DNA of 54,939 nucleotides from Candidatus Uhrbacteria bacterium (GCA_026395055.1 JAPLZK010000002.1:1-54939), one strand, 5' to 3'. Counted from the stretch's first letter, positions 1 to 54,939 are shown. Made by a program: numbers and translations. Notes: generated by a model from the sequence alone, not told the origin.

Positions 1-557
1 CCAAAGTCGCGGTCGGACCAGGCTTTGAAGTCTTGAACAGTGGAAGTGCGTCCGAGGATAATCGAAGTACTTGTCGCGAACAGACAGAACTCTCCACCAG
101 ATTCATTCAATCCATTTGTTTCGACGACGACGGATGTGAGTGCATCTTCCTTTGCCATCACAAAGCGAACAGGGCGGTCTGTGTCTCGTAAAGCGTTCTT
201 AATTTCGCCTCCAAGCGTCTTGAAGCTTCTTGCGATTCGCTGAACAGCCTTAGGATTTCCAAGATCGTAGGCACTAAATCCAAAGGTGATTTTATTTTTT
301 CCTGTGGCTTCCGAGGCTTTTCCGACGATCGCATTTGCACATGCACGCGCGTCGCTTCCGAGGTATTCATCGAGAATGATACCAATCTTGATGGTTCCGC
401 CCAGGCGGTTTTGAAGGTCTTCGAGTGGTATCTCGACATGCTCAAGAACGAGGACGGTCGAGGACTCGAGAAGAATTTTTGAATTCAAACCCACAACCGA
501 GAGAATTTCGGCTTTTGCGAGGTCTGGATGTGAGCCAAGAATGAAAAACGTTTGCAT
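1..557 (-). CDS. conserved hypothetical protein, N-terminal part only (gene runs off the window start); N-terminus resembles putative RNA/DNA-methylase-like proteins of small-genome bacteria
   Basis: Not in the ORF track (no stop inside the window). The minus frame is open from ATG at 557 (plus-strand cat 555-557; in-frame stop upstream at 648-650) to position 1. My translation: MQTFFILGSHPDLAKAEILSVVGLNSKILLESSTVLVLEH...GRTSTVQDFKAWSDRDF. The functional hint is from memory of the N-terminal pattern only. Confidence 0.55.
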   Translation of the reverse strand, partial: MQTFFILGSHPDLAKAEILSVVGLNSKILLESSTVLVLEHVEIPLEDLQNRLGGTIKIGIILDEYLGSDARACANAIVGKASEATGKNKITFGFSAYDLGNPKAVQRIARSFKTLGGEIKNALRDTDRPVRFVMAKEDALTSVVVETNGLNESGGEFCLFATSTSIILGRTSTVQDFKAWSDRDF

Positions 558-611
558 ATCGGAATCAATGTACGCGATTGGAGGCGTTTTGTCGATTTGC
601 CCCCGAATTCC

Positions 612-640
612 TTGACCAAATCCACGGGATTGTGTAGGAT
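612..640 (+). promoter_or_regulatory. sigma70-type promoter upstream of rpsF
   Basis: TTGACC (612-617), 17-nt spacer, TAGGAT (635-640); 75 nt upstream of the rpsF ATG. Confidence 0.5.
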
Positions 641-715
641 TCCGGCATTAATTCTTATCTGTCCACGACCTGAAGAAGGTCGCTCCAACCCACGCGTCGG
701 AGCCAGACGAAACCT

Positions 716-1219
716 ATGAACAAGTACGAACTTTTGTATATTGTGGGATCACAATATACAGAGACAGAGGTTGGAGAAATCCAAAAAAAGATTGCCGCAC
801 AGTTGGAAAAGCTCGGTGCGAAAATTCTTCGCAATGAAATGATTGGCAAGATTCGTCTTGCGTATATCATTAAAAAGACCCGTCACGGATCTTACGTGCT
901 TGTCCACTTTGATGCAGACCCAGCCACAATCAAAGACTTCAATCGTTCCATGGAATTGAATGAAGAGATCTTGCGCCACACACTGCTCACACGTGAGCCA
1001 GGTGCTGAGAACAAAAAGTTTGAATTGACCGCTTACGTTGCGCCGCTCACAGATGAAGGAAAGCGCGTAGAACAAAAGCCAGCATTGGTTCGTGAAAAAC
1101 CAGCACATGTTGAATCTGCCGCTGCACCAATCGACGCTGCGGACGCAAACATGAGCATTGAAGAGTTGGACAAAAAACTCGACGAAATCTTGGAAGATGA
1201 CTTGTCAGAAAAAGTTTAG
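716..1219 (+). CDS. rpsF: 30S ribosomal protein S6 with acidic C-terminal extension
   Basis: ORF track. S6 core (MNKYELLYIV...RLAYIIKKTRHGSYVLVHFDA...EEILRHTLL) plus a ~65-aa acidic tail. Conserved rpsF-ssb-rpsR order. Confidence 0.93.
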   Translation: MNKYELLYIVGSQYTETEVGEIQKKIAAQLEKLGAKILRNEMIGKIRLAYIIKKTRHGSYVLVHFDADPATIKDFNRSMELNEEILRHTLLTREPGAENKKFELTAYVAPLTDEGKRVEQKPALVREKPAHVESAAAPIDAADANMSIEELDKKLDEILEDDLSEKV

Positions 1220-1270
1220 TGAGACGCACGCTTAACATAAATCAAATGAGACCACTGAAAAAGTAGCAGA

Positions 1271-1353
1271 TTTTCGTTGAACGGGCTGTTGATCCCCGCG
1301 ATACGTAGGTGTTCTACGTTGAGTGGGGGCAACGGGCGCCCGTGAAACGAAAA
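1271..1353 (+). promoter_or_regulatory. extended imperfect hairpin in the rpsF-ssb spacer (possible leader/regulatory RNA structure)
   Basis: TTTTCGTTgaACGGGC (1271-1286) pairs with GCCCGTgaAACGAAAA (1338-1353). Inner ACGTAG/CTACGT and CCCC/GGGG helices. No ORF. Confidence 0.3.
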
Positions 1354-1384
1354 GATGCGCTTTTGCAGGGGTCTCAACATCTCT

Positions 1385-1852
1385 ATGTACTCATTGAATC
1401 GAGCAACTTTAATTGGAAACCTTACACGTGAACCAGAAATGCGTCAGACGCCAGGCGGACAATCCGTCTGTTCCTTCTCTGTTGCAACCAATCGTGCTTG
1501 GACCGGCAATGACGGTGTAAAGCAAGATGCAACAGAATTTCATAATATTGTCGCATGGGGAAAGCTTGCGGATATTTGCGGACAATATTTGAGTAAAGGA
1601 AAAAAGATTTACGTAGAAGGACGATTGCAAACACGTGATTGGGAAGGCCAAGACGGTGTAAAGCGTTATCGTACAGAAATTGTTGCAGAAAACATGATCA
1701 TGCTTGATAACAAAGGTGGTGCACCAACGGGAGGATCTACCTTCAGTCCGTCACCAAGTGCGGGGGGATTTACTCCACCACAACCTAAGATGCAAGATGA
1801 TCCGTCGGTCAATCAAGACCAAGAGATTCGTATGGAAGAAATTCCTTTCTAA
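1385..1852 (+). CDS. ssb: single-stranded DNA-binding protein
   Basis: OB-fold SSB motifs (LNRATLIGNLTREPEMR, FHNIVAWGKLAD, YVEGRLQTRDWE), Gly/Pro-rich linker and acidic tip ...MEEIPF. Start moved from the ORF-track 1355 to ATG 1385 (MYSLNRA). Confidence 0.93.
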   Translation: MYSLNRATLIGNLTREPEMRQTPGGQSVCSFSVATNRAWTGNDGVKQDATEFHNIVAWGKLADICGQYLSKGKKIYVEGRLQTRDWEGQDGVKRYRTEIVAENMIMLDNKGGAPTGGSTFSPSPSAGGFTPPQPKMQDDPSVNQDQEIRMEEIPF

Positions 1853-1857
1853 AATAT

Positions 1858-2103
1858 ATGATGAATAACAATCAAAATTCAAAGCCGGTTGTGGCCGGAG
1901 CAAAAAAGCAATGCTATTTTTGCTACAACAACATCGATGACATTGATTATAAAGAAATGAATGTCATGAAGCGTTTTCTTTCTTCATTTGCAAAGATCGT
2001 TCCACGCAAGCGCTCTGGTGTTTGCCAAAGCCATCAACGCAGATTAGCGAATGCCATTAAGCGCGCTCGTATCATGGCGCTCGTTCCGTTCGTACAACAA
2101 TAA
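1858..2103 (+). CDS. rpsR: 30S ribosomal protein S18
   Basis: S18 core: CYFCYNNIDDIDYKEMNVMKRFLSSFAKIVPRKRSGVCQSHQRRLANAIKRARIMALVPF. Confidence 0.93.
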   Translation: MMNNNQNSKPVVAGAKKQCYFCYNNIDDIDYKEMNVMKRFLSSFAKIVPRKRSGVCQSHQRRLANAIKRARIMALVPFVQQ

Positions 2104-8593: not shown

Positions 8594-8622
8594 TTGACAA
8601 AACGGCAAAAATCCCGTACGGT
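8594..8622 (+). promoter_or_regulatory. sigma70-type promoter upstream of pit
   Basis: TTGACA (8594-8599), 17 nt, TACGGT (8617-8622). The ORF-track start at 8594 is the TTG of this -35 box. Confidence 0.45.
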
Positions 8623-8671
8623 TTCGCCAGTTCCTTGTGTCCTTAACAATGCGCCTTATGGAGGTGATTCC

Positions 8672-9745
8672 GTGTTCGAACAATTCTTGGCTCATTACGA
8701 GCTGTTGAAGCAAGTGCCGTTCGTTTTGTTCGTGATCATCCTTGCGTTCGTCTTTGAAGGTACGAACGGATTTCATGACGCGCCCAATTCAATTGCGCTC
8801 ATGGTTAAGACGAAAGTCATGTCTTACCGCAAGGCGATTGTCTGGGCGGCATTCTGGAACTTTGCTGCCACGTGGTTCGTTGGAACCGCGATTGCAAACA
8901 CTGTTGCAAAGTGGATCTTTCCGGAGTTCGTGACGCCAGAAGTGATCGGCGCTGGTCTCATTGGTGCCATTGTCTGGAATTTGGCGACATGGGCGAAGGG
9001 AATTCCCTCAAGCTCATCGCATGCACTTCTGGGCGGATTTGGTGGAGCGGCTATTGCAATGGCTGGAACTGCGCACGGCGTCATGCACATGGAAAAAGTG
9101 TACATGATCATCGCGTTCATCTTCTTGTCCCCGGTTGCAGGTTCGTGGATCAGCCTCTGGCTCCTGCGGATTATCCGTATGAAAGCTCCGCCGACGGAAC
9201 AAAATACCTCGGGTTCGCTTGCGAAAGTCATGCAGATCGTTTCTTCCGCGGCGTACAGTTGTGGTCACGGCGCGAACGACTCGCAAAAGACCATGGGCAT
9301 CATCGCTGCCCTGCTCTACTGCAGCATTCTGAAGTCGGATCAGGCAGCGTTCATGGCTGGAACCGCCAAGTTTCCGTCGTGGATCATCTTCGCCTGTTAT
9401 GCGTGCATGGCACTCGGTACGCTCATGGGTGGGCGTCGAATCATGAACACGATGACCGACGATATTACGAACGACATCAATCCACGTTCTGCGGCGACCA
9501 TTGGGGTCTCTGCAGCGGTTGTGCTCTTCGCTTCCCAAGCACTCGGCATTCCGGTGTCGACGACCCATGCGATCAACGGTTCCATCGTTGGTGCAGCCAT
9601 GGAAAATCACCCGATTTCCGAGATCTACTGGAAAAAGATCCTGGAAATTGGTTACACCTGGGTCATCACCCTTCCTGGCGCCGGCCTCGTTGCCGCGCTC
9701 GCCTACTGGGTCATCATGTACTTCCGAACCACTCACGCTGCTTAA
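8672..9745 (+). CDS. pit: inorganic phosphate transporter, PiT family
   Basis: Duplicated PiT signature: FEGTNGFHDAPNSIA and CGHGANDSQKTMGIIAAL. Multi-TM. GTG 8672 is preceded by GGAGG (8660-8664), so I prefer it over the ORF-track start. Confidence 0.85.
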   Translation: MFEQFLAHYELLKQVPFVLFVIILAFVFEGTNGFHDAPNSIALMVKTKVMSYRKAIVWAAFWNFAATWFVGTAIANTVAKWIFPEFVTPEVIGAGLIGAIVWNLATWAKGIPSSSSHALLGGFGGAAIAMAGTAHGVMHMEKVYMIIAFIFLSPVAGSWISLWLLRIIRMKAPPTEQNTSGSLAKVMQIVSSAAYSCGHGANDSQKTMGIIAALLYCSILKSDQAAFMAGTAKFPSWIIFACYACMALGTLMGGRRIMNTMTDDITNDINPRSAATIGVSAAVVLFASQALGIPVSTTHAINGSIVGAAMENHPISEIYWKKILEIGYTWVITLPGAGLVAALAYWVIMYFRTTHAA

Positions 9746-9771
9746 AAGGCAGTGTTTTTGTTTGTCTTCCC

Positions 9772-9800
9772 TTGACAATTTGGCATTTTGATGGTATATT
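9772..9800 (+). promoter_or_regulatory. near-consensus sigma70 promoter ahead of the 9988-12738 gene set
   Basis: TTGACA (9772-9777), 17 nt, TATATT (9795-9800). Confidence 0.6.
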
Positions 9801-9894
9801 TGCCCGTCAAAATTCCTTCAAATTTGTGTCTTTTTTCTGTGTGGTCTTTGGAGAGAGCATGCAGAAAACCCAACAAAATCCCGCGTTCCAAGAT

Positions 9895-9933
9895 AATCCC
9901 CACGAATTCTCTCCGAACGTGGGATTTTGTTTA
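9895..9933 (+). terminator. terminator-like hairpin inside the long leader (attenuator or end of a ~125-nt sRNA)
   Basis: AATCCCCACG aattctctccgaa CGTGGGATT TTGTTT. The loop CTCTCC is complementary to GGAGAGAG at 9850-9857. Confidence 0.45.
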
Positions 9934-9987
9934 AAGTGTCTAAACCCATTCGCGTGTGATCGCGAAACATGAAGGAGCAGCACAAAG

Positions 9988-10917: not shown

Positions 10918-10943
10918 TTCATTTCTCGCCTGAGATTCACTCA

Positions 10944-10989: not shown

Positions 10990-11001
10990 GCTGGAGGTTC
11001 C

Positions 11002-11664: not shown

Positions 11665-11693
11665 TCCTACAAAAACATCTGCCCAATCACTTG

Positions 11694-44169: not shown

Positions 44170-44247
44170 TGCCTGCTTCCTCCTTGTTCGATTAAGGTTT
44201 ACTTTCGAACTTAGTCCACATCCGAGACATTCTTGGACATGAGCTAA

Positions 44248-44274
44248 GAGAAAAGGTCGTTTCAGAGAAACGAC
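44248..44274 (-). terminator. hairpin + T-run after the VWA gene
   Basis: Minus strand: GTCGTTT ctctg AAACGAC CTTTTCTC. Confidence 0.5.
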
Positions 44275-44286
44275 AGAGTCTAGTCT

Positions 44287-44320
44287 CCCTCGCCTTCACA
44301 AGGAGGGGGCTGGGGGGTGG
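44287..44320 (-). repeat. C-tract + GC hairpin 3'-UTR element, copy 1
   Basis: Plus strand CCCTCGCCTTCACAAGGAGGGGGCTGGGGGGTGG, abutting the VWA stop codon. Other copies at 47769-47806 and (inverted) 52891-52924. Confidence 0.8.
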
Positions 44321-45373
44321 TCAGTTTTGCACGCGCACCATCTGGCGGCGACGCACGGTGAGAAAACTCACGAGGCAAAGAGCGATGAGGCCCGTCGGAA
44401 CGGGATTGATCCCCGTAGGCGAAGCACTGCAACCTTTTTCCTTGCCTTGGTTCTGATCTGCAGGAGCTGCTTGATCCGTCGGAGCGTTTCCGTTCGGAGC
44501 GGCATTCTGTCCTGCGGGAGCATTCTTTTGCTCTGCAGCTTTCTTGGCGGCGTCGTATTCTTCTTTGGAAACGCCAATGGGCCAATAGCGCAGATCCATA
44601 TTGGTGACTTCCTTGAGCCAAGCATTTGCCACGTCGTCCGGCACTCCCTTCAGCAGATCGTAATCCACTTGGGCAGCGGCGGCATTGGTGGTTTCCACTT
44701 GGACGGCGGTCTTCAGGGCGCGGTCGAGCGCGATCGCATCATTCGCTTTCCAGTAACGGCGCGCGATGGTTGCGAGCGGATGCCTTTCCTCCATGCCGAC
44801 GCCGATGACATCGAGTTGAATGCCACTCGACATCACCTCGGGCGCGTACGCCTTCATCAGCTGATCTTCTTCTGCGGGCGTTGCAACACCGTCGGTCACG
44901 ACCAAGAGTTGGTACGTGCCACGATTGTGCTGTGCACTGCGAGCTTCGATCAATGCGTCCGCCGCTTTCTTGATGGAGGTTCCAAGAGGAGTTCCACCAC
45001 CGGGATTGATTTGATCGATCGCTGCCTTGATCTGATCTTTGTTCATGGGAGCGATCGGCGCGAGCCAATCGATCGTGATCTTGCGACCCCAGTCATCTCC
45101 AACGAACAGCAGAACGCCGACATGGGTGGTTTGTGGAATCTGATCGATCACGCTTTTCAGCGCGTTCTTTGCAACCGTGATTTTCCGATCATTGCTGCCA
45201 GGACTGATTGCATCCTTCATGGAACCGGAACCGTCAATCACGATCGCGATGCAATCGTGTGTGGCGGATTCAGCGGAGGTTGGAGGATTTCCTGCACCGT
45301 CGTACGGAAGCGCGAACGCATTCGTCGAGATGAACAGGGTCGTGAGAATCAGTGCGGTGTGAAGCGTCTTCAT
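44321..45373 (-). CDS. secreted von Willebrand factor type A (VWA) protein with C-terminal Cys + TM + RRR tail
   Basis: Signal peptide MKTLHTALILTTLFISTNAFA. MIDAS residues in IAIVIDGSGSM, GGGTPLGTS, LLVVTDG. C-terminus GCSASPTGINPVPTGLIALCLVSFLTVRRRQ. Confidence 0.85.
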   Translation of the reverse strand: MKTLHTALILTTLFISTNAFALPYDGAGNPPTSAESATHDCIAIVIDGSGSMKDAISPGSNDRKITVAKNALKSVIDQIPQTTHVGVLLFVGDDWGRKITIDWLAPIAPMNKDQIKAAIDQINPGGGTPLGTSIKKAADALIEARSAQHNRGTYQLLVVTDGVATPAEEDQLMKAYAPEVMSSGIQLDVIGVGMEERHPLATIARRYWKANDAIALDRALKTAVQVETTNAAAAQVDYDLLKGVPDDVANAWLKEVTNMDLRYWPIGVSKEEYDAAKKAAEQKNAPAGQNAAPNGNAPTDQAAPADQNQGKEKGCSASPTGINPVPTGLIALCLVSFLTVRRRQMVRVQN

Positions 45374-45387
45374 TTGTGCACCTCCTC

Positions 45388-47340
45388 TTACAGCTCGTAG
45401 TCGGAAGCGGTGGCAGCCTCGGCCGAAACTCGGACGATACTGAACTCCACACGACGATTCTTCGCAGCTTCTTCCGGAATCCGAGGCTTCACGATGAACG
45501 GGTCGCTCGCGCCAGCGCCGATCGGAGTGATCTGGCTCTCGTCGAGTTTCACACCCTTCTTTGCTGCATACGCAATGAGCGCACGGCTCACTTGCTTTGC
45601 ACGATCATACGAAAGTGCTGTCGCGGCTTCCGCAATGCGCGAGGGACTGTCCCCCTGCTTTGCGGCGTCCGTACTGTTGCGCGCTTCGTCGATGTTCGGA
45701 TTGGTCGCAAGAGCGAGGACTTGCTTCGCGTTCTTCAGGTCGAGCGGTTTCCCTTCGATCGAATAGGTGAAGTTGCCAGACGTTCCGGCTTGCTTCACGA
45801 GCCCTTTCTCCATGCCCTTCTTCAGGATCGTGGAGACAAGCAGCGTCGTGTCTGTGTGTCCGCGGATCACGATGGTCGCGCGGGAATACTTTGGTGCGAG
45901 CACCAGGACTTCGTCGAATTCCTTCTTGTAGTTGGTCTCGTCGAACTCGACCTGGTTCTCCGCAAAGTAGGCAACAAACGAGAGCATGGTGTTGCCACCG
46001 AGCGAGCCCGTTTGGTTCATCTGTTCCACTTCCGCTTGGGTTGCTTCTGTGTTGAAGTGCGCGGTGCGCTTCACGTTGCCCGAGAGCAGGTCCTTGAAGA
46101 TCGGATGTGTCCACTCGACGTTCGCACTTTGGATGTCGACACGCTTGGTGGCGTTGTCGAGTTCTGCTGCGAGATCGTTCGAGAGGTTGGAGAAGGACTT
46201 GTGACCGATGACAGACGTCGGATTGAAGAACTCCACGTTGCCGGCAAGGCCGACAAATGCTGCGTCCGACCAGAGGCCGTACGTTGCGGCTTCATCCGGA
46301 CACGTGTCCTTCCACGTCTGCATGGTGAATGCGAGCAGGCCACGGAACTCTTCCGAACCTTTCGCCTTGTTGTCGTAGTCGTGCTGGAGAGCCTTCACGG
46401 CTTCCACTGACTTCAGGAACGCCGCAGCGAACTTCACGACCGTATCATGATGCTCCACGTTGAACTTGTGGCTCACAAAGTACATGTCGGGAATGGACGT
46501 GCGCCGATCGATGGTGGAGACGAGCACGTGCGCGCCCTTCACCGTTCCTTCTGCGCCTGTGCCAACATGCGCCGCATCCGCGCCTGTGAGCGCGTCGCGG
46601 TCCGGACTGATCACGAATGCGCAATCAACTTCCGGATGCGCTTTGAAATATTCCGCGGGGCCGTCTTTTGCCGTCACGTCCTTCGTGAATTTGATCTTCA
46701 CGTTCTTCGAGGTCCGCTTGACGTCCTTCAGGATATCGATGAGGAAGCTCTCGTGCGGGCCGTCCTTCTGGAGAGCGACGGTCGCTGTGTCGAGGTCGCT
46801 GATGCTCTTGATTTTCTCGCGGCAGACCACGTGGTCGCCCATGGAGTACGTCAATTGCACAGCAGGTTCCGCACACAGATCCGCGTCCGGCGTCGGACAC
46901 AGTTCGCCGTCGAACTTGCCGATCATCGGATACGTGCCGCGCAGGAACGTGACCTTGCCCGCCTTGTAGTCGTCGATTTGTGCGCGAACGTTGTCGTTCG
47001 GGCTTTCGACGAATTCAATGCAGAGGCCGTACTGGTCGTAGATGCTACCAATACGTGTCTTCAGACCGCCGTTGCCATAGAAGGCAGCCATTTCGGCGCC
47101 CCAGATGATCATGCCAGCCTTCAGACATTCGCCTTTCTTTTCTTCACCACCCGGCAACTTTGCCTGGATGCCTGGGGCTGCGGGCGCCGCTTGCGCGGGA
47201 GCCTGTGCCTGAGGAGTGGCTTGTGCCGGCGCGCTTTGCGTCGTCGTGTTGCCGTTTTGATTCGGGACCTTCTTGCAGCCGCCGATGACACTCGCGAGCG
47301 CGAGCATCACAGCAAACAGAATCATGCGAGCGTTTCGCAT
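45388..47340 (-). CDS. lipoprotein with solute-binding-like domain fused to an OmpA_C-like domain
   Basis: Lipobox LASVIGGC, Ala/Pro/Gln linker, PBP-like region. C-terminal OmpA-like ATIVIRGHTDTT...LSYDRAKQVSRALIAY...NRRVEFSIVRV. Confidence 0.8.
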   Translation of the reverse strand: MRNARMILFAVMLALASVIGGCKKVPNQNGNTTTQSAPAQATPQAQAPAQAAPAAPGIQAKLPGGEEKKGECLKAGMIIWGAEMAAFYGNGGLKTRIGSIYDQYGLCIEFVESPNDNVRAQIDDYKAGKVTFLRGTYPMIGKFDGELCPTPDADLCAEPAVQLTYSMGDHVVCREKIKSISDLDTATVALQKDGPHESFLIDILKDVKRTSKNVKIKFTKDVTAKDGPAEYFKAHPEVDCAFVISPDRDALTGADAAHVGTGAEGTVKGAHVLVSTIDRRTSIPDMYFVSHKFNVEHHDTVVKFAAAFLKSVEAVKALQHDYDNKAKGSEEFRGLLAFTMQTWKDTCPDEAATYGLWSDAAFVGLAGNVEFFNPTSVIGHKSFSNLSNDLAAELDNATKRVDIQSANVEWTHPIFKDLLSGNVKRTAHFNTEATQAEVEQMNQTGSLGGNTMLSFVAYFAENQVEFDETNYKKEFDEVLVLAPKYSRATIVIRGHTDTTLLVSTILKKGMEKGLVKQAGTSGNFTYSIEGKPLDLKNAKQVLALATNPNIDEARNSTDAAKQGDSPSRIAEAATALSYDRAKQVSRALIAYAAKKGVKLDESQITPIGAGASDPFIVKPRIPEEAAKNRRVEFSIVRVSAEAATASDYEL

Positions 47341-48553: not shown

Positions 48554-48937
48554 ATGTTGTCTTTGTTCTTTCTCTTTTTTTCCGTCGTTTTGACATGGGT
48601 TACCAAAGAAGGCTTCCGAATCTGGTGGATGTGTCTGTTTGTCGCACTTGCTGTGCATGAATGTGATACACATCCAGATCCCTTGATCAGTACTGCGGAA
48701 GATGGTCGGTCGGCCTATGTGAAAGGGTTCGAGATCTGCCAAAAAGCGGATTTTCCGGACGTAATCGTTCTGAAACACTACTTTCCGAAAGATGGACACA
48801 TCGATTTCATGTATTATTGTGTAGATTCACAAGGGGGATTGCACATTTCTCCGGACGCTGTGTCAAAGCCGGTCAGTTCGACGCAAAATGTGACCCAAAC
48901 CCCGCTTCCGCCGGCTTCAACCCCTGTTTCTCCGTAA
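48554..48937 (+). CDS. hypothetical membrane/exported protein (127 aa)
   Basis: ORF track. GGAGG 7 nt upstream. N-terminal hydrophobic segments. Terminator follows. Confidence 0.6.
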   Translation: MLSLFFLFFSVVLTWVTKEGFRIWWMCLFVALAVHECDTHPDPLISTAEDGRSAYVKGFEICQKADFPDVIVLKHYFPKDGHIDFMYYCVDSQGGLHISPDAVSKPVSSTQNVTQTPLPPASTPVSP

Positions 48938-48945
48938 TCGACTCA

Positions 48946-48975
48946 AAGACACCCCTGGTGTCTTTTTTCTTTTTC
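48946..48975 (+). terminator. intrinsic terminator
   Basis: AGACACC cct GGTGTCT TTTTTCTTTTT. Confidence 0.65.
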
Positions 48976-49007
48976 GCTTATTTTAGCCAATTTAGTTCGC
49001 TTAGGGC

Positions 49008-49036
49008 TTGACAAAAAGGCCAAAAAGTGGTATATT
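49008..49036 (+). promoter_or_regulatory. near-consensus sigma70 promoter heading the small-gene array
   Basis: TTGACA (49008-49013), 17 nt, TATATT (49031-49036). Confidence 0.6.
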
Positions 49037-49141
49037 GTGGAGGTTAAGATCATTAAAACTTTGGGGAGAGAGCTGTGCTATCCAGTCCCAGGATCCGATA
49101 GCAAATTCAAGGTATTGCCCATTTTTGGCGCAATACTCTTT

Positions 49142-49201
49142 GAGAACCAATGTTTGAGTATTTCTCTCGTTTGAAATAAGCAATCATTGGTTCTTTTTGT
49201 T
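49142..49201 (+). terminator. large-loop terminator-like hairpin in the array leader
   Basis: GAGAACCAATG (32-nt loop containing TTCTCTC) CATTGGTTC TTTTTGTT. The loop is complementary to GGAGAGAG at 49065-49072. Confidence 0.45.
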
Positions 49202-49259
49202 AGATGGTTAGAAAACACGTGCGCTCGGCGTATGACGCGGAGCAACAAGGTAAAAGACA

Positions 49260-49583
49260 ATGTCGAACAAAAACCTGGTTCCTGTGTGGTATGTGGAATA
49301 CACCATGCAAATGGTGCGGCACTTCTGCAAGAAGTACGAATGTCCGGAGCGGGATCTCCAGTCGTGCACAACGGCGATTACGATCGCCTTGCGGGAACAA
49401 GACGACTTTGAATGGACGCCGTGTGTCAAAGGGTTCCGGCGGATCCTGTTCATCAAGCCCCAGATCCGCGAGGAGAAACGCGTGGTCGCCCTGGTCTTCG
49501 GCTACGACAATTTGGATCAGACGCTCACGAACGAGCTGAACGAATCCATTCGTCGTGCCTGCGACAACAAGTGGGCTGACTAA
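49260..49583 (+). CDS. hypothetical protein (107 aa)
   Basis: ORF track. Weak AAGG upstream. GC-rich. Confidence 0.6.
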   Translation: MSNKNLVPVWYVEYTMQMVRHFCKKYECPERDLQSCTTAITIALREQDDFEWTPCVKGFRRILFIKPQIREEKRVVALVFGYDNLDQTLTNELNESIRRACDNKWAD

Positions 49584-49600
49584 ACATCTTCATATCTCTA

Positions 49601-49687
49601 TTAGCTTCGCGCGAATGAGAGTTTGCTCTTTGAAAACCGTCTTGCCCTGTTTGCTTCACAAACAGGGACTCGACTTCGAACATCACT
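49601..49687 (+). repeat. intergenic module family 1, copy 1
   Basis: TTAGCTTCGCGCGAATGAGAGTTTGCTCTTTGAAAAC ... CCCTGTTTG cttca CAAACAGGG ACTCGACTTCGAACATCACT. Confidence 0.8.
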
Positions 49688-49763
49688 CTGCGGCAGTCAA
49701 AGAGTGGTGCGCGATGAGAGCAAAAATCGCTCGGCGTTTACGCGGAGCATCTGGAGACTGTTC

Positions 49764-50078
49764 ATGTCCAAGTCGCAAATCCTCGGTTTCATCGGTTCCT
49801 GTCTCCTCATCATCGCGGCCTACGTGGTGAGCGGGTTGTTCTACACGAAGACGGACTCCTGGTTCGTCCACGACTACGTCGTCCTCTACGTCGGCGCGGC
49901 AACGCTGCTTGCCATGTGGAGCCTGCGCAACGTGAACACCACGTGGCAGTTCGGCCGCTTCAACGTGAGCAGCTTCGCCACGTGTCACGTGTTCCTGTGG
50001 TCGATGCACGCGGTCGTGTTCGTCACGTACCTCAAGCTCGTGATCTCCCCGAACAACCCCATTTACACCGGCTGCTAA
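49764..50078 (+). CDS. hypothetical multi-TM membrane protein (104 aa)
   Basis: ATG 49764 after GGAG, within ORF 49623-50078. The ORF-track start lies inside the intergenic module. Confidence 0.6.
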   Translation: MSKSQILGFIGSCLLIIAAYVVSGLFYTKTDSWFVHDYVVLYVGAATLLAMWSLRNVNTTWQFGRFNVSSFATCHVFLWSMHAVVFVTYLKLVISPNNPIYTGC

Positions 50079-50099
50079 CAGCCTGGAGGACACATCATA

Positions 50100-50210
50100 A
50101 TGCGTAATCTGTTTCGCGGTTTGATCGGACTTGCACTCGTTGTCGGCTTCTTGCATTACCTGCACGTTGCCTACGGCGTGAGCTATACGCCGATCCCGTT
50201 TCTGCCTTAG
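50100..50210 (+). CDS. possible 36-aa membrane peptide
   Basis: GGAGG 9 nt upstream. MRNLFRGLIGLALVVGFLHYLHVAYGVSYTPIPFLP. Below the ORF-track cut-off. Confidence 0.4.
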   Translation: MRNLFRGLIGLALVVGFLHYLHVAYGVSYTPIPFLP

Positions 50211-50302
50211 AGCTTCGCGCTCAACGGTTCGCTCTTTCTCATCTGCTCGACGGGTCCGGAATGTATTCCCGACCCGTCGAGTGCCTGACTTCGAACATCA
50301 CT
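50207..50302 (+). repeat. intergenic module family 1, copy 2 (diverged)
   Basis: TTAGAGCTTCGCGC...GCTCTTT... CTCGACGGGTC (loop) GACCCGTCGAG ...GACTTCGAACATCACT. Confidence 0.65.
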
Positions 50303-50389
50303 TGCAAGGTTGCAGTGTGGTGAACGATGAGGGTGATATGAGTTCCTAACAAAAAATGCCCGCGCAATGCGTCGGCTGCAGGAGTTCCT

Positions 50390-50755
50390 TTGAAGATCAA
50401 TTACGCTCTGGTGCAGGTTCGTAGCTTCATCTTGTTGGCTCTGGTTTGCATCGTCACGATGTGTACCGTGTTCATGGTCAACATTGTGGGGCAGCGCGAG
50501 CTTCGTGAACAGACCATGTTTGCCAGTGTGGAATCGCCGGCCACGTGTCCGATGGATCGCTTTCCGCAGACGTCGGCCGAACGCGTTGCGTGCCTTGAGA
50601 AGAATATGACCGCGCTCTACCTGCAAAGCATCCGCCAGGAAAGGGACATCTACACGCTTGCCAAAGACATGCTCAATCGTGCAGACGATGATTCCGAAGC
50701 GGATGTTCCGAATGAGGAACAGAGCATCGACGAGAAGAATGTCTGCGAGCAGTAG
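50390..50755 (+). CDS. hypothetical signal-anchor protein (121 aa), TTG start
   Basis: ORF track. AGGAG 6 nt upstream. N-terminal TM FILLALVCIVTMCTVFMV. Confidence 0.6.
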   Translation: MKINYALVQVRSFILLALVCIVTMCTVFMVNIVGQRELREQTMFASVESPATCPMDRFPQTSAERVACLEKNMTALYLQSIRQERDIYTLAKDMLNRADDDSEADVPNEEQSIDEKNVCEQ

Positions 50756-50765
50756 TCTTTCTCAC

Positions 50766-50856
50766 TTAGCCTCGCGCGAATGAGAGAATCGCTCTTTGAA
50801 AACAAAGGTCTACCCGCAACTGCTTCACAGCTGCGGGACTCGACTCTGATGATTAC
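50766..50856 (+). repeat. intergenic module family 1, copy 3
   Basis: TTAGCCTCGCGCGAATGAGAGAATCGCTCTTTGAAAAC ... CCCGCAACTG cttca CAGCTGCGGG ACTCGACTCTGATGATTAC. Confidence 0.8.
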
Positions 50857-50955
50857 GTCACGTCTCTCGTGAACGTCGTCGTTAGACTGAGTCTGGTTTC
50901 TCTGGAGTTTCTACACAACAAGATCGGCACGTTCCGATCGGAGGTTTATTCCATC

Positions 50956-52335
50956 ATGAAGTACACGATTCCGTTCCTGGTGTTCGCCATCCTCCTCGCC
51001 GCGTGCGAGACGACGAATGTGTACCCGACCAAGGTGGTTGAGGTGCAGCAGACGTCGAGTGCTCCCGTGGTCGAGACCAAGGTGGTTGAAGTGAAGACGA
51101 AGATCGACTGCGCGTTGATCGATCCGTCGTTCGTGCCGCAGGGTGACAACAACTGCGTCTCGATCTGCGTCGCGTGCCTGAACGGCGGCGGCCAGTGCCT
51201 CGACACGAACAAGAATGGATACGGCGACACATGTGTGACGTCGTTGCCCTCGAGCGAAACGCCTGTCGATGCGCCGCCACAAGCGACGCCGGCAGAATCG
51301 CCCGCGGTTCCGTTCTGCATGGACTATGACAACGACGGGTACGTCAATTGTGACGGCTCGTGTCTGGTTCCGTCGAATCAGCTGTGCGGCGACTGTAGCA
51401 ATTTTGACCCGACGGTTCACCCCGGCGCGGAAGAGATCTGCGACAACGTCGACCAGAACTGCGATGGCAACACGGATCTGGATCTGATGACGGTCTACCG
51501 CGAGGACAAGGACAGTGATGGGTTCGGTGACGCGTTCAGTAAGATTACTCTTGCATGCAAAACGCCGGCCGGATTCGCGAGCGGACAGTTGGATTGCAAC
51601 GACGCGGACGCTTCGGTTCACCCCGGCGCGGACGAGGTGTGCAGCGACAACATCGACAACAACTGCAATCAGCAGGTCGACGAGTTGCCGTGCGTGACGT
51701 ACGAAGAGTTGTGCGGTGACAGCATCGACAACAACAAGAACGGCAAGACGGATGAAGACTGCGACTGCTCGTATGTGAATACCGGCAAGTCGGCGTCGAA
51801 TCTGCTCTATGCGAATTGGTGCAATAAGTGCACGGCGGAGTGCAAGCTTCTGCCGGACATCGACGTCACGAAGGACAGCTACAAGCTCGTGCTCGTGTGG
51901 GGCGACAAGGCCGATGCGAATTGGCCCTACATGAACACATTCAAGTACAAGCAGGAAACCGAGCCCGGCCTCTCTGGTATTGGTTACACCACGACGCAAA
52001 CGTGGGACTCCTGGTCGGGTGTCGATTTCTACAAGGGTACGTTCGTCGCGATCGATCTCGATCCTGCTGTGAAGTACATTCGGTTCAACGAAATGCAGTA
52101 CCCGGGCACCTGGGAAATCTGCAATGCCGCCAAGGTGACGGACACCTTCGTGGATTTCAACGCCCTCAACTTGCCGATGATCTACGTCGTCAAAAATGGC
52201 GTGTGGGAAAACGTCACGTCCAAGGTCGGCATGCAAGTCGCTCTCGATGTCGTGAGCGGCGGCAAGACCCCGAAGTCGGGAAGCCCCTCTGGCTACCCCG
52301 TGCCGAATTACTGCTCGGCGTACATCACGTTCTAG
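50956..52335 (+). CDS. lipoprotein with Cys/Asp-rich MopE-like (putative metal-binding) repeats and a beta-rich C-terminal domain
   Basis: Lipobox ILLAAC. Repeats such as DCSNFDPTVHPGAEEICDNVDQNCDGNTD and DCNDADASVHPGADEVCSDNIDNNCNQQVDE. ATG 50956 after GGAGG, within ORF 50869-52335. Confidence 0.75.
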   Translation: MKYTIPFLVFAILLAACETTNVYPTKVVEVQQTSSAPVVETKVVEVKTKIDCALIDPSFVPQGDNNCVSICVACLNGGGQCLDTNKNGYGDTCVTSLPSSETPVDAPPQATPAESPAVPFCMDYDNDGYVNCDGSCLVPSNQLCGDCSNFDPTVHPGAEEICDNVDQNCDGNTDLDLMTVYREDKDSDGFGDAFSKITLACKTPAGFASGQLDCNDADASVHPGADEVCSDNIDNNCNQQVDELPCVTYEELCGDSIDNNKNGKTDEDCDCSYVNTGKSASNLLYANWCNKCTAECKLLPDIDVTKDSYKLVLVWGDKADANWPYMNTFKYKQETEPGLSGIGYTTTQTWDSWSGVDFYKGTFVAIDLDPAVKYIRFNEMQYPGTWEICNAAKVTDTFVDFNALNLPMIYVVKNGVWENVTSKVGMQVALDVVSGGKTPKSGSPSGYPVPNYCSAYITF

Positions 52336-52351
52336 TCCGCTCTTTCACTCG

Positions 52352-52435
52352 CTCAATCAACTCTCGGAAGTTCCGAAGTTGATTGAGTCTTTTCCAGAGA
52401 TCCGCATCGAAAGGCGATGGAGAGATCTGAGAAAG
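52352..52435 (+). repeat. intergenic module family 2, copy a
   Basis: CTCAATCAAC tctcggaagttccgaa GTTGATTGAG TCTTTTCCAGAGATCCGCATCGAAAGGCGATGGAGAGATCTGAGAAAG. Confidence 0.85.
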
Positions 52436-52487
52436 CTCATTGGTCAGTTCCGTAACATGATCGGCACGTTCCGATCGGAGGCATCAA

Positions 52488-52778
52488 ATGAACAAGAAGG
52501 AAATCCAGGTAGTCGTTGCGTCGATCGTCTGCTTTCTCGAGGCCATGGGCTGTCGCGCGCTCTCGCTCGAAGAGTACGTCAGTCTCACGTTCGATCTCGC
52601 CACGGGCAAGGAGTTCTTCCACTACAGGGCATTCGATCGCTTCACCGAGCTCAACCTCAAGGTCGGCCGCGAATCGTTTGCAATCGTGAACGTCCGTGAC
52701 GTGTGCGATGTGTACATGACGAAATGGTTGAACAACCAGCTCACGATGCGTCTTGCGGCGGCGGCTACCGCGGCGTAG
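52488..52778 (+). CDS. hypothetical protein (96 aa)
   Basis: ORF track. GGAGG 8 nt upstream. Confidence 0.6.
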   Translation: MNKKEIQVVVASIVCFLEAMGCRALSLEEYVSLTFDLATGKEFFHYRAFDRFTELNLKVGRESFAIVNVRDVCDVYMTKWLNNQLTMRLAAAATAA

Positions 52779-52801
52779 GTTTGTCCTTTTTCTTCCACTC
52801 G

Positions 52802-52882
52802 CTTAATCATCTCTCGGAAGTTCCGAAGTTGATTGAGCCTTTTTCAGAGATCGCAAGCGTGTGCTTGTAGGATCTGAGAAAG
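52802..52882 (+). repeat. intergenic module family 2, copy b
   Basis: CTTAATCATC tctcggaagttccgaa GTTGATTGAG CCTTTTTCAGAGATCGCAAGCGTGTGCTTGTAGGATCTGAGAAAG. The inner helix is replaced and the outer helix is kept. Confidence 0.85.
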
Positions 52883-52890
52883 TGGTGAGA

Positions 52891-52924
52891 CCACCCCCTA
52901 ACCCCCTCCTTGTGAAGGCGGGGG
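52891..52924 (+). repeat. C-tract + GC hairpin 3'-UTR element, copy 3 (plus orientation)
   Basis: CCACCCCCTAACCCCCTCCTTGTGAAGGCGGGGG, which is the reverse complement of the 44287 and 47769 copies. Confidence 0.8.
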
Positions 52925-52969
52925 AATAATGAGCTTGCTCCGCCGTGGCGGGGTCGCAAGGAGAGTCAG

Positions 52970-53338
52970 ATGATTCAGCACAAGAATTCGTTGAGTGACA
53001 AGGCGATGCTTGCAGCGTTCGAGACCCTCGTCGCACGAGAACTCGTGACGCGGCAGGAATTGCTGCGGTGGAATTGCGATGCGCAGCTCAACGCACGCAA
53101 GACGCTCTTCACGATCGTGTTCAAGAATCGTGGCAACTCGCGGCGCATCGAATGCGAAGTGCCGGCGACGCTCGACACGCTTCCGGACGGCGGTGTGAAA
53201 ATCTCCGTCGAGATCCTGATGATCATGGCGGGCGCGACCAAGAAGGTTCCGGAAAGTCCGTGGACCGACGTCCTCTTCAACGCAGACAAGCCCCGCACCG
53301 TCCAAATGCGAACCGTGCTTCGTCGGCGCGCGGCGTAA
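52970..53338 (+). CDS. hypothetical protein (122 aa)
   Basis: ORF track. AAGGAGAG 5 nt upstream. Confidence 0.6.
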   Translation: MIQHKNSLSDKAMLAAFETLVARELVTRQELLRWNCDAQLNARKTLFTIVFKNRGNSRRIECEVPATLDTLPDGGVKISVEILMIMAGATKKVPESPWTDVLFNADKPRTVQMRTVLRRRAA

Positions 53339-53369
53339 TTCCTCGATAAGACAACATCCGGAGGAAACG

Positions 53370-53498
53370 ATGATTCGAAAGGTGATTCTGTTCCTGTCAT
53401 TTCTGGTGTTGGCGCTGAAAGTTTATGACGCCAACAAGGACATGAAGATGGAGATTTCGGATGAGCAACTGCATCAAATTCTCCTGAGGGCTCAGTAG
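53370..53498 (+). CDS. possible 42-aa signal-anchor peptide
   Basis: GGAGG 6 nt upstream. MIRKVILFLSFLVLALKVYDANKDMKMEISDEQLHQILLRAQ. Below the ORF-track cut-off. Confidence 0.45.
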   Translation: MIRKVILFLSFLVLALKVYDANKDMKMEISDEQLHQILLRAQ

Positions 53499-53518
53499 CT
53501 AACGTTCTTTCTAAACTC

Positions 53519-53639
53519 GTTCGATCAACACCTAGATCTCCCAGAAGTTGATCGAACCTGCCTCGACCTGTTTACCAAAACAGCGTCGGGGCCTTTTCCA
53601 GAGATCCGCATCGATAGGCGATGGAGAGATCTGCAAAAG
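53519..53639 (+). repeat. intergenic module family 2, copy c (with extra hairpin)
   Basis: GTTCGATCAAC ...GTTGATCGAAC, extra CGACCTGTTT acc AAAACAGCGTCG, then CCTTTTCCAGAGATCCGCATCGATAGGCGATGGAGAGATCTGCAAAAG. Confidence 0.85.
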
Positions 53640-53658
53640 TTCAAACGGAGGTAGTGAC

Positions 53659-53967
53659 ATGTTCACTCAAGAAGAAATCGCGGCGATCTGCGCCGAGTTC
53701 GAAGAAATCTGTCGCGGTTCGGGCGCGTTCTGGAGCATGGTCCGCGAGGATATGCAAAGGTATGAAGCGTCCATCGAACTCGACAACGATGGTTTCCGCA
53801 TCAGGGTGAATGGCGAGATCATGTTCGAAATGCTCTATTACGAACAGTCGTATCACTTTTTCCGCTGGATTCACGAGTCGAACAGCATGGTGCGACGAAG
53901 CGAGTTGCAAAAGGCCATCGAGATTTATGATCGCGTCGTCGGCAAGTTGCTCGGCGTTGCGGCGTAG
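53659..53967 (+). CDS. hypothetical protein (102 aa)
   Basis: ATG 53659 after GGAGG, within ORF 53548-53967. The ORF-track start lies inside the module. Confidence 0.6.
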   Translation: MFTQEEIAAICAEFEEICRGSGAFWSMVREDMQRYEASIELDNDGFRIRVNGEIMFEMLYYEQSYHFFRWIHESNSMVRRSELQKAIEIYDRVVGKLLGVAA

Positions 53968-54024
53968 ATCAATCGTTCAACAACAAAGCAGCCCACGATT
54001 GAGTTCGTCGGCAAGGAGAAGGTG

Positions 54025-54279
54025 ATGTCCAAAAACGTACGGCCGATCTCACTCGGAGAGTTGCAGCAGGAATCGCGCAAGAACATCGAACGCGAAGCGG
54101 CGACCAAGATGGGTCAGGTCGATCCAGATGACTTGAGCCCGCAGGAATACTTGAACGTGATCCACGAAGGCGAAAGCGATCAAGTCATCCCGGCAACAGG
54201 CGATGATGATCTCGATCTGCTGGAAGCCGCGGCTCAGCAATGCGATCGCAACGTCGGCGAATACGACAATCGTTGGTGA
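54025..54279 (+). CDS. hypothetical acidic protein (84 aa)
   Basis: AAGGAGAAGG upstream. ORF track 54022-54279. Confidence 0.6.
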   Translation: MSKNVRPISLGELQQESRKNIEREAATKMGQVDPDDLSPQEYLNVIHEGESDQVIPATGDDDLDLLEAAAQQCDRNVGEYDNRW

Positions 54280-54303
54280 TGCACCCGTTCCTTCCCTTAA
54301 CCT

Positions 54304-54389
54304 GTTCGACCTGCTCTCGGAAACTCCGTGAGTGCGTCGAACCTTTTCCAGAGATCCCGATCGAAAGGCGATGGAGAGATCTGTGAAAG
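54304..54389 (+). repeat. intergenic module family 2, copy d
   Basis: GTTCGAC ctgctctcggaaactccgtgagtgc GTCGAAC CTTTTCCAGAGATCCCGATCGAAAGGCGATGGAGAGATCTGTGAAAG. Confidence 0.85.
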
Positions 54390-54422
54390 TGTATGTAACC
54401 ACCCGCGTGAATTTGCGTCGGT

Positions 54423-54719
54423 ATGGAGTGTGAGAGGATGAAGTGTTTCAAGTATTATTACAATTCAGGTCTGATCTTGTTGATCGGAGTGATCATCACT
54501 TGCGCAACGCATGGTTTTTCCAGAACACCAAGTGTAGGGCTGCGTTGTGTGTTGTTCTGGCTCCAGATCGGTATTCCCGGTCTGTTGTTCGCCAAGGATA
54601 TCCTGATCGTAAAGCGAAGGATATCCCCGGAGCAAGTCACGAAGTTCTCCAAGTTCATCTTGATCCCCACGCAAATCATTGGACTCATTGTTTTGGTGGT
54701 GATGTACCAATCGATCTGA
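54423..54719 (+). CDS. hypothetical multi-TM membrane protein (93-98 aa)
   Basis: ORF track. Alternative start ATG 54438 after GAGAGG. Confidence 0.55.
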   Translation: MECERMKCFKYYYNSGLILLIGVIITCATHGFSRTPSVGLRCVLFWLQIGIPGLLFAKDILIVKRRISPEQVTKFSKFILIPTQIIGLIVLVVMYQSI

Positions 54720-54772
54720 TCTTTCCTCGCATAGTGCGGGACAAGAATTGAAAACATCAACAAGGTGAAGTT

Positions 54773-54939
54773 GTGACAAATCGTGAAATTGTGGAATTGG
54801 TGATCTATCTTCAATCGTGCCGTCAGAGTTTTGGGACGTATGAAGCCACATCGATAGAGATCGCAGAATTGGCTCTGAACCTGAAGGACGGCAATACAGT
54901 GGAGCAGCGGGTGAGGTTGTCCAATCCTCCCGCGATGTA
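54773..54939 (+). CDS. possible hypothetical protein, 5' part only (runs off window end)
   Basis: Frame open from GTG 54773 (weak AAGGTG upstream) to the window end: VTNREIVELVIYLQSCRQSFGTYEATSIEIAELALNLKDGNTVEQRVRLSNPPAM... Confidence 0.3.
   Translation, partial: MTNREIVELVIYLQSCRQSFGTYEATSIEIAELALNLKDGNTVEQRVRLSNPPAM

Follow-up and report, generated by a model that had tools for sequence, protein, structure and literature searches.

Pangenome work describes flexible genomic islands and islets that sit at fixed slots between core genes, and also compositionally atypical accessory DNA. Genomes that combine leaderless with SD-led genes form 'group C' of GeneMarkS-2. In Bacteroidetes (Flavobacterium johnsoniae), initiation is SD-independent and the anti-SD is retained (PMC6847099, PMC7797042). 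Experiments in E. coli demonstrated that U(-1) of the mRNA pairs with A37 of tRNA-fMet (PMC10018350), where a chloroplast example of this extended pairing (Esposito et al. 2003) is also cited. A literature search for a split in start signals between core and flexible genes found no published account of one. Here, we analysed a window of 54,939 nt, the whole stretch of DNA under study, together with the 1.2 Mb genome to which it belongs, the tiny genome of a CPR, Uhrbacteria-like bacterium. We consider it fairly probable that a single ribosome here reads two genome compartments by means of different start signals: an SD-less U(-1) core and a long-resident, SD-led, GC3-rich flexible set.

Two gene classes in the window and the genome

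The GC content of 1-kb segments runs from 0.37 to 0.61 and is high at 8.5-12.5, 21-22.5, 25.5-28, 33.5-47.5 and 49-54.9 kb, which bears out the GC steps seen in a preliminary description of this DNA. Its distinction between SD-led accessory genes and SD-less core genes also held: at a start, an anti-SD duplex of ≤ -6 kcal/mol is formed by 24 of the 27 genes with GC3 ≥ 0.46 in the blocks that it named, versus just 3 of the 18 low-GC3 core genes in the window. In the window's GC-rich genes, SD motifs (AAGGAG, GGAGG, GAGGAGG) can be seen by eye 5-9 nt from the ATG, and long spurious antisense ORFs are confined to the GC-rich blocks, as had been noted. The classes do switch repeatedly along the 55 kb (Table 1), although we count about 9 alternations rather than at least 10.

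Table 1. Core segments, islets and other features of the window
Feature	Position	Strand	Remarks
Core segment 1: rpsF, ssb, rpsR, epmA-like, efp, small ORF, recA, RodZ-like, ftsK	716-8600		Pfam; GC3 0.35-0.45, no functional SD
Islet A, ftsK-rpoB slot: PHO4 phosphate transporter, 3 genes without Pfam match	8594-12738	+	GC3 0.53-0.67, SD-led
rpoB-rpoC core	13644-20940	+	GC3 0.41, T at -1
Islet B, single-gene unit	20947-22303	+	Terminator, promoter, SD, gene, terminator
yebC and ruvC core	22330-23612	+	T(-1), no SD
AT-rich single-gene island: P-loop ATPase (23853-25883)	23719-25969	+	GC3 0.28; direct repeat
Islet C: acyltransferase, PurC-like SAICAR synthetase	26006-28025	-	GC3 0.62-0.69; SDs CAGGAGGA, AGAGGAGA
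Core segment: ftsJ, maf, small ORF, trmD, KhpA-like KH protein	28406-31114	-	Pfam
16S rRNA gene	31519-33009	+	Only 16S gene in the genome
Islet D, between 16S gene and tRNA-Ile: 4 small genes without Pfam match	33190-35094		Own signals
Islet E: AAA ATPase, NitT/TauT-type ABC transporter, two unknown genes, two OmpA-domain proteins, VWA protein	35697-47340	-	Pfam; GC3 0.51-0.83, SD at nearly all genes
rpsP core gene, alone between two islets	47812-48348	-	GC3 0.30, T(-1), no SD
Islet F: cassette-like array of small genes	48554-54939	+	GC3 0.65-0.80; repeated spacers

Synteny of core segment 1 was compared with genomes G002 and G030, and rpoB and rpoC were identified from their ORF lengths (1085 and 1345 aa), earlier naming and orthologs of 73-97% in the same two genomes, in place of a Pfam scan. 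Islet B illustrates the layout of the GC-rich units, with a TTGACA-17-TAAATT promoter, a GAGGAGG SD, a 402-aa gene (21071-22279) and an end terminator with a TTTTTGTTTG tail. Islet D, too, is equipped with TTGACA-17 promoters (33206, 33964) and with terminators, and the ABC transporter of islet E comprises an ATPase, a permease and an NMT1-like SBP. The preliminary description held that both classes share one promoter and terminator grammar. TTGACA-N16-18-TAnnnT promoters and hairpins with T-runs do occur in both, but GC-rich genes have the promoter far more often: a consensus promoter precedes 38% of these (24% perfect) versus 17% of the others (4% perfect), with 4-5% in shuffles.

The pattern extends beyond the window to the whole genome. 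A two-component fit to the GC3 of 1022-1024 genes placed 79% at 0.416 and 21% at 0.578; the per-gene distribution of GC3 peaks mainly around 0.42, and about 20% of the genes lie in a heavy tail around 0.58. The composition of the block genes (GC3 0.52-0.89) is thus atypical relative to this main peak. Genome-wide, anti-SD pairing at starts correlates with GC3 (rho -0.46, p 4e-55; internal control, rho ~0.02), which confirms that the SD split between GC3 classes is real. Duplexes of ≤ -5 kcal/mol at longest-ORF starts increase from 9% (GC3 < 0.40) to 58% (GC3 > 0.60), while the same number of random in-gene control positions gave a flat 15-20%. SD-like sequences are rarer in low-GC3 genes (9%) than in the control (20%), and they are found in 54-59% of the GC3-rich genes at the longest-ORF start and in 87-89% at the best nearby start. 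We called genes and starts ourselves, from longest ORFs and with a two-class Markov model; signals are ambiguous in 42% of the genes. Longest-ORF starts lie further upstream in GC-rich DNA, where genes have 3.2 candidate starts versus 2.7.

The split between the classes recurs in a genome of the same genus (G002), of another genus (G011) and of another family (G030). None of the order-core genes has a GC3 above 0.62, and one alone exceeds 0.54. Between GC3 0.48 and 0.54, core genes are still U-type (T(-1) 85%, SD 23%) and non-core genes are SD-type (71-76%). The spacers within islets are also GC-richer (0.475 versus 0.402), which, together with a rise of all S-ending codons, points to a regional GC force.

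Chimeric assembly, which had been thought unlikely in its simple form, is excluded. Class boundaries are bridged by contigs of two samples at an even depth of 8-10x, and the junctions are identical in the independent same-genus assembly G002 and recur in G007 and in an unrelated MAG contig. Any artefact of the broader kind, including bin contamination and GC-biased gene or start calling, is extremely improbable. The MAG-style assembly in 4 contigs and the more numerous, further upstream start candidates of GC-rich DNA might suggest one, but besides the bridged and recurring junctions, the number-matched random-position controls were flat, and the classes part in the same way when first starts are used and in T(-1), an independent signal.

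Start context of the SD-less genes

The SD-less class has a signature of its own, a T at -1, which is absent from the preliminary description. It precedes about 80% of low-GC3 ATG starts versus 13% of internal ATGs, with frequencies of 0.80 in first genes and 0.81 in operon-internal genes, and just 6-20% of GC-rich genes have it. This is the strong signal of the upstream context, in which A makes up 27% of the bases at -3 and 35% of those at -6. The initiator tRNA carries A37, with an anticodon loop CUCAUAA and a stem with three G-C pairs. Most likely, the U(-1) of core genes adds a fourth base pair with this A37. The strong U preference and the presence of A37 resemble the quadruplet pairing described for E. 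coli; the effect there is small and modulatory, whereas U(-1) here, whose function is putative, is near-obligatory in one class and missing from the other. The predicted folding energy from -25 to +25 is -3.9 kcal/mol at U-type starts versus -7.9 at SD-type starts, which ties structure to SD by correlation.

A minority of core genes has a candidate -10 box near the start: in 40 of 156 low-GC3 first genes (26%), a TAnnnT ends at -10/-9, against a background of about 3% per position. Lying 9-10 nt before the AUG, this box would imply very short leaders. In this, the genes may resemble those of group C genomes. However, most U-type genes, including operon-internal ones, lack such a box, the spacing would imply a leader of 2-3 nt rather than zero, and T(-1) is the general signal.

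Distribution and age of the GC-rich genes

The GC-rich genes are accessory, as had been proposed. Orthologs in the same genus exist for 45% of them versus 73% of low-GC3 genes, and at the order level for 3% versus 58%, although fast protein evolution may hide some of their order-level orthologs. Just 9% have any match in G030. They are clustered (90 adjacent pairs versus 38.9 +/- 5 expected), and the ftsK-rpoB, rpoC-yebC and ruvC-maf slots between syntenic core genes have different contents in G000, G002 and G030; in the first of these slots, each genome has different SD-led GC-rich genes. The islet B gene has a positional ortholog in G002 that is 31% identical, and its slot is empty in G030. 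The gene order of islet E is that of G002 C5:342-354 kb, with identities of 27-83%. Like flexible islands, these islets combine atypical composition, patchy distribution, slot contents that differ among relatives and fast protein evolution. Unlike them, they are GC-richer and not AT-richer than the core, have a start signal unlike that of the core and hold their composition over a long residence, with no integrase or att repeats seen.

The idea that these are foreign genes domesticated under host signals was not borne out as stated, as their residence is old and their start signals are not those of the host: they lack the host U(-1) and have the SD that core genes avoid. A recent horizontal import from GC-richer, SD-using, non-CPR bacteria, with amelioration yet to come, would agree with their patchiness, the scarcity of matches in G030, the atypical composition and the foreign-style start signals. 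The closest non-CPR homologs of SBP-OmpA belong to Planctomycetota, Opitutia and Omnitrophica (35-39% identity), and Planctomycetota make up most of the language-model neighbours of the SBP. We nevertheless regard such an import as quite unlikely. The G000/G002 orthologs in the same positions are as divergent at synonymous sites as the core (4-fold identity 0.52 for GC-rich genes versus 0.48 for low-GC3 core genes), and the GC-rich genes common to both have kept their GC4 (0.64/0.66). By our arithmetic, a simple decay model remains compatible with an import older than the split of these genomes, provided that GC4 was ancestrally about 0.8 and is ameliorating still. GC3 does not fall with age either, being 0.559 in genus-shared and 0.539 in strain-only SD-type genes.

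Individual families point in the same direction. The SBP-OmpA/VWA module, the one module whose long residence was assessed by a tree, has kept GC3 0.58-0.92 and its SDs in five relatives, and in the SBP-OmpA tree all six copies from CPR group together (SH-aLRT 99), separate from the homologs of Planctomycetota and other PVC bacteria, whereas a recent acquisition would predict closest relatives outside the lineage or polyphyletic copies. The relatives of PurC form a graded series between 88% and 45%, in which homologs inside and outside CPR are equally distant, at about 50%. The closest are syntenic CPR-like contigs, and in another MAG contig an 80% identical ortholog adjoins the ftsJ ortholog, that is, at the same locus. 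This check of lineage origin covered SBP-OmpA and PurC among roughly 190 GC-rich genes. In the GC-rich blocks of the window, no integrase was seen among the ORFs scanned with Pfam, nor any tRNA target or flanking direct or att-type repeats. As the GC-rich genes are old residents, recent foreign import is only partly supported, and the other reading of the preliminary description, two distinct expression regimes within one genome, fits better and describes the data well.

An intact anti-SD and its possible regulation

As previously read, the 16S 3' end carries an anti-SD. It reads GGATCACCTCCTTTCTAG, with the intact anti-SD CACCTCCTTT at 33000-33009, and this genome, G002 and G030 each have one 16S gene with an intact anti-SD. 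The genome also encodes bS21 and a four-domain bS1. An SD-like site that is kept in G000, G002 (both -8.7) and G030 (-12.4) precedes rpsU, the bS21 gene, as it does very few other core genes, where random expectation gives such a site in just 5 of 401 three-way orthologs; rpsR is without one (0.4). As in Bacteroidetes, the anti-SD is intact yet SDs are missing or avoided in most genes, and start regions are unstructured. The bS21 gene, unusual among core genes for its SD-like site, may be a further parallel. In contrast to Bacteroidetes, about one fifth of the genes, accessory without exception, use strong SDs, and the context signal is U(-1) instead of A at -3/-6.

The SD-led flexible genes might form a separate translational regulon, in which anti-SD availability is switched, for instance by bS21 occupancy as in Bacteroidetes. 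An intact anti-SD in a genome where 80% of genes avoid SDs, the presence of both bS21 and bS1, an rpsU site kept in three genomes against so low a chance expectation, and the Bacteroidetes precedent (PMC7797042) would all agree with this. However, in two of the genomes, G000 and G002, rpsU has a site of modest strength, the A(-3) context signal of Bacteroidetes is absent, and an account free of any switch fits the pattern equally, so that we rate such regulation as unlikely. Doubtful to the same degree is the more general idea that this CPR order uses a dual initiation code on one ribosome, U(-1)AUG without SD for the core and SD for flexible genes, in which anti-SD availability, possibly set by bS21, tunes the flexible set independently of the core. 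If that code were real, translation of the flexible set could be turned up or down separately.

Two proposed compartments with separate start signals

Under the reading that we prefer, two compartments on one ribosome, the core would comprise about 80% of the genes, including essentially all order-shared ones, and would be translated without SD pairing from G-poor, unstructured leaders that avoid SD-like sequences and place U before about 80% of AUG starts. About 19% of the genes would make up the flexible compartment, clustered as islets in fixed slots that syntenic core genes flank. The islets would be assembled from self-contained units, in each of which a near-consensus sigma-70 promoter and a classical SD, 5-9 nt before the start codon, precede a GC3-rich gene that ends in a hairpin/T-run terminator. 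Such genes would evolve fast at the protein level and be swapped between genomes, and as a class would be old residents of the lineage, their GC-richness and SDs being actively maintained rather than remnants of recent import. We infer two reasons why SDs are kept: the unstructured-leader/U(-1) route is closed to GC-richer, more structured start regions, and genes with portable signals can work after exchange between lineages. What upholds GC3 may be GC-biased gene conversion at loci prone to such exchange, selection, or a combination of the two.

If this is true, two modes of start recognition coexist naturally in one cell, split by evolutionary gene class, and the roles of U(-1):A37 pairing and of a retained anti-SD become directly testable. 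Gene finders trained on a single RBS model would misplace starts in either one class or the other in CPR genomes. The SD-plus-GC3 signature would offer an inexpensive way to mark the flexible set, whose functions lie in the envelope and transport or are unknown and which probably mediates lifestyle differences. GC-rich accessory DNA that holds its composition long-term in an AT-leaning genome would also run contrary to the usual picture of amelioration.

Two blocks of the window have further features. Islet F contains a MopE-repeat protein (50869-52335) and repeated spacer elements of 28-62 nt between its small genes; regarding the idea of an integron-like or CALIN array, none of the 8 larger ORFs scanned with Pfam, in a block that exceeds the window end, matched an integrase. 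The only tRNA-associated repeat in the window belongs to the AT-rich ATPase island, which is flanked by a 75-nt direct repeat consisting of the tRNA-Gly 3' end and its terminator. This island is a third kind of accessory DNA, distinct from the GC-rich islets.

Two gene classes with different start signals

The window makes up the initial 54,939 bases of contig C2 in an assembly of 1.205 Mb (46% GC, four contigs). The size of the genome and the taxa of named homologs (Uhrbacteria, Andersenbacteria, Minisyncoccia) agree with an assignment to Candidatus Uhrbacteria, within CPR/Patescibacteria. The GC profile of the window steps between approximately 0.40–0.46 and 0.50–0.61 at the places named in the preliminary description. 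Its low-GC genes identified with Pfam are rpsF, ssb, rpsR, an EpmA-like class II synthetase, efp, recA, a RodZ-like HTH protein, ftsK, yebC, ruvC, ftsJ, maf, trmD, a KhpA-like KH protein and rpsP; rpoB and rpoC were named from ORF lengths and 73–97% orthologs. The GC-rich genes of the islets encode a PHO4 transporter, an acyltransferase, a PurC-like enzyme, an AAA ATPase, an ABC transporter with an NMT1/SsuA-like substrate-binding protein, two OmpA-domain proteins, a VWA protein and a MopE-repeat protein, and many have no Pfam match. Using our own two-class gene caller, we found starts whose anti-SD duplex reaches ≤ -6 kcal/mol in 24 of the 27 window genes with GC3 ≥ 0.46 and in only 3 of the 18 low-GC3 genes, which bears out the earlier claim that SD sites lead accessory genes and are scarce in core genes. 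The SD motifs of the GC-rich genes are visible by eye, and the sole 16S gene terminates in GGATCACCTCCTTTCTAG, confirming the anti-SD.

Coordinates of islets and other features (window coordinates unless a contig is given)
Feature	Location	Remark
Islet A	8594..12738	
Islet B	20947..22303	
Islet C	26006..28025	
Islet D	33190..35094	
Islet E	35697..47340	contains the SBP-OmpA/VWA module
Islet F	48554..54939	
Islet F spacers	52341-54393	repeated, 51-62 nt, 88-92% identical, between small GC-rich genes
16S gene	31519-33009	
16S gene of G002	G002 C5:332112-333602	
rpsU	G000 C2:224719-224961	bS21 gene
rpsU orthologs	G002 C5:503424; G030 C1:828549	
tRNA-Gly repeat pair	23719-25969	75-nt direct repeat, 96% identical
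Inverted-repeat elements	5202-5248; 13531-13640; 23057-23138; 30440-30486	leaders of recA, rpoB, ruvC; one copy within trmD
Hairpin elements	44286-44322; 47773-47816; 52881-52925	37-44 nt; two direct, one inverted
Split rpsP-KH-(rimM)-trmD operon	30033-48348	normally contiguous

Across the genome, per-gene GC3 follows a heavy-tailed distribution whose main peak lies at 0.42, and a two-component fit (0.416, 79%; 0.578, 21%) is favoured. Anti-SD hybridisation energies computed for the whole genome show that SD enrichment follows GC3, as expected from the preliminary description, with a flat control (rank correlation -0.46, p 4e-55; control 0.01–0.03). Longest-ORF starts reach ≤ -5 kcal/mol in 9% of genes with GC3 < 0.40 and in 54–58% of those above 0.52. 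As random in-gene positions reach this value in 15–20% of cases, SD-like sequence is avoided upstream of low-GC3 genes. GGAG is most frequent 9–10 nt upstream of the start.

GC content might by itself produce SD sites, but core genes with a GC3 of 0.48–0.54 are still U-type (T/U at -1, without SD), whereas non-core genes at the same GC3 are SD-type, and a syntenic PurC ortholog (80% identity) has an SD at a GC3 of only 0.44. The start signal thus tracks gene class rather than GC alone. Among order-core genes, none has a GC3 > 0.62 and only one > 0.54. Secretion or membrane location was rejected as the driver, as the class split holds within every location class; signal-peptide-like proteins account for 24% versus 17% of the classes, and 56% of the GC-rich genes look cytoplasmic. 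A second 16S gene or specialised rRNA is ruled out by the single 16S copy.

Structure of the starts and a possible parallel with Bacteroidetes

T occupies position -1 at approximately 80% of ATG starts in low-GC3 genes, compared with 13% of internal in-frame ATGs and only 6–20% in GC-rich genes, and its frequency is the same for first and operon-internal genes. The initiator tRNA has A37, pairing of which with mRNA U(-1) raises initiation in E. coli (PMC10018350). Predicted folding from -25 to +25 is -3.9 kcal/mol for U-type and -7.9 for SD-type starts, and U-type start regions are also much less structured than gene interiors. Roughly one in four first genes of the low-GC3 class have a -10-like hexamer ending 9–10 nt upstream of the ATG, which suggests that a subset may have very short leaders. 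The proposed sharing of one promoter grammar stood only in part: TTGACA-N16-18-TAnnnT occurs in both classes, but upstream of 38% of GC-rich genes (24% perfect) versus 17% of low-GC3 genes (4% perfect; shuffles 4–5%).

The genome encodes bS21 and a four-domain bS1. The bS21 gene rpsU bears an SD-like site, AAAGGGTG or GAGGTG, which is also kept in its orthologs in G030, a genome from another family of the same order, and in the same-genus genome G002; among 401 three-way core orthologs, only 5 keep such a site across the three genomes. In Bacteroidetes, bS21 aids anti-SD sequestration and its gene bears a rare SD (PMC7797042). The SD-like site on the bS21 gene here may parallel this. The A(-3) signal of Bacteroidetes (PMC6847099) is absent. 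As a lead, this site may be a candidate for regulation. The anti-SD is reported to be missing in some Parcubacteria (PMC9297842), and is retained in the 16S genes of G002 and G030. We found no description of a core/accessory SD split in the literature on CPR SD usage or on core-versus-accessory SD differences.

Conservation and gene turnover

The same two-class split, including the exchange of T(-1) for SD in the top GC3 decile, was found in G002 and G030 (both analysed whole) and in the covered part of G011 (another genus, 52% GC). The 194 genes with GC3 ≥ 0.52 have a reciprocal best hit in G002 in 45% of cases (median identity 68%) and in G030 in 3% (any BLAST hit 9%), versus 73% (median identity 86%) and 58% (any BLAST hit 68%) for low-GC3 genes, so that their accessory nature is upheld. 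GC-rich genes cluster (90 adjacent pairs versus 38.9 ± 5 expected), and the ftsK-rpoB slot holds unrelated SD-led GC-rich genes in each genome: four in G000, the genome under study, two in G002 and three to four in G030.

Chimeric assembly, judged unlikely in the preliminary description, is excluded. Two samples from the same study yielded contigs that span the boundaries at an even 8–10x depth, bridging rpoC/islet B/yebC, islet C/ftsJ-maf-trmD, 16S/islet D/tRNA-Ile and tRNA-Pro/islet E, and the same boundaries recur in an independent assembly, G002 being collinear with the window, including islet E. Read-contig joints from 16S to tRNA-Ile that omit 33.0–35.2 kb were set aside; as their sides measure only 21–22 letters, they most likely derive from rRNA operons of other organisms.

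Origin of the GC-rich class

The preliminary description had offered acquisition of foreign genes as one of two readings; the comparison of orthologs does not support it as stated. Between G000 and G002, identity at 4-fold sites is 0.52 for GC-rich and 0.48 for low-GC3 genes; being equally diverged, both classes were co-inherited. GC4 in these orthologs is 0.64/0.66 and 0.39/0.475, respectively. The genus-level GC-rich set may also fit simple decay from an ancestral GC4 of approximately 0.8; genus-shared SD-type genes are no GC-poorer than strain-only ones. The SBP-OmpA/VWA module, the only one to which a tree test of residence was applied, has its two genes together in five relatives, where they carry SD and a GC3 of 0.58–0.92. 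A single clade (SH-aLRT 99) unites all six CPR copies of SBP-OmpA with a protein named as Patescibacteria, the closest non-CPR homologs being from Planctomycetota, Opitutia and Omnitrophica (35–39% identity). PurC has relatives in a graded identity series. Intra-islet spacers are also GC-richer (0.475 versus 0.402) and all G- or C-ending codons are more frequent in GC-rich genes, which speaks for a GC force acting regionally and against tRNA-specific selection. From the ortholog divergence, GC4, module tree, PurC series, and spacer and codon GC, we conclude that the GC-rich class appears to be old and maintained.

Other elements and loci

A search of genome contigs for PurC returned only one close relative, on a 6.7 kb contig (L128, CAYHWG010000048.1) filed under an 'uncultured Gammaproteobacteria' MAG, with orthologs of ftsJ (73%) and PurC (80%) in the window's gene order. 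As a CPR-like ftsJ adjoins PurC despite this label, the contig probably belongs to a CPR genome and was misbinned.

The 16S genes of G000 and G002 are 99.3% identical, in contrast to a median of 86% for core proteins and approximately 50% divergence at 4-fold sites; the gene would be either unusually conserved or exchanged. In the window, rpsP lies 16.7 kb from KH/trmD, with islet E, three tRNAs, islet D and the 16S gene in between. The tRNA-Gly repeat consists of the tRNA 3' end and its terminator, and encloses just one gene, which is AT-rich (GC3 0.28), codes for a P-loop ATPase and has no ortholog in G002 or G030. The arrangement resembles an integrase-free insertion of 2.2 kb at tRNA-Gly.

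The inverted-repeat elements of the GGGTTAGGGA/TCCCTAATCCC type seem to form a dispersed, structured intergenic element tied to core genes. The hairpin element is laid out as CCCCCTCCTT CAC AAGGAGGGGG followed by a G-rich tail, and its three copies lie at islet borders, adjoining rpsP and the VWA gene. The alternation of spacers and genes in islet F resembles a cassette array.
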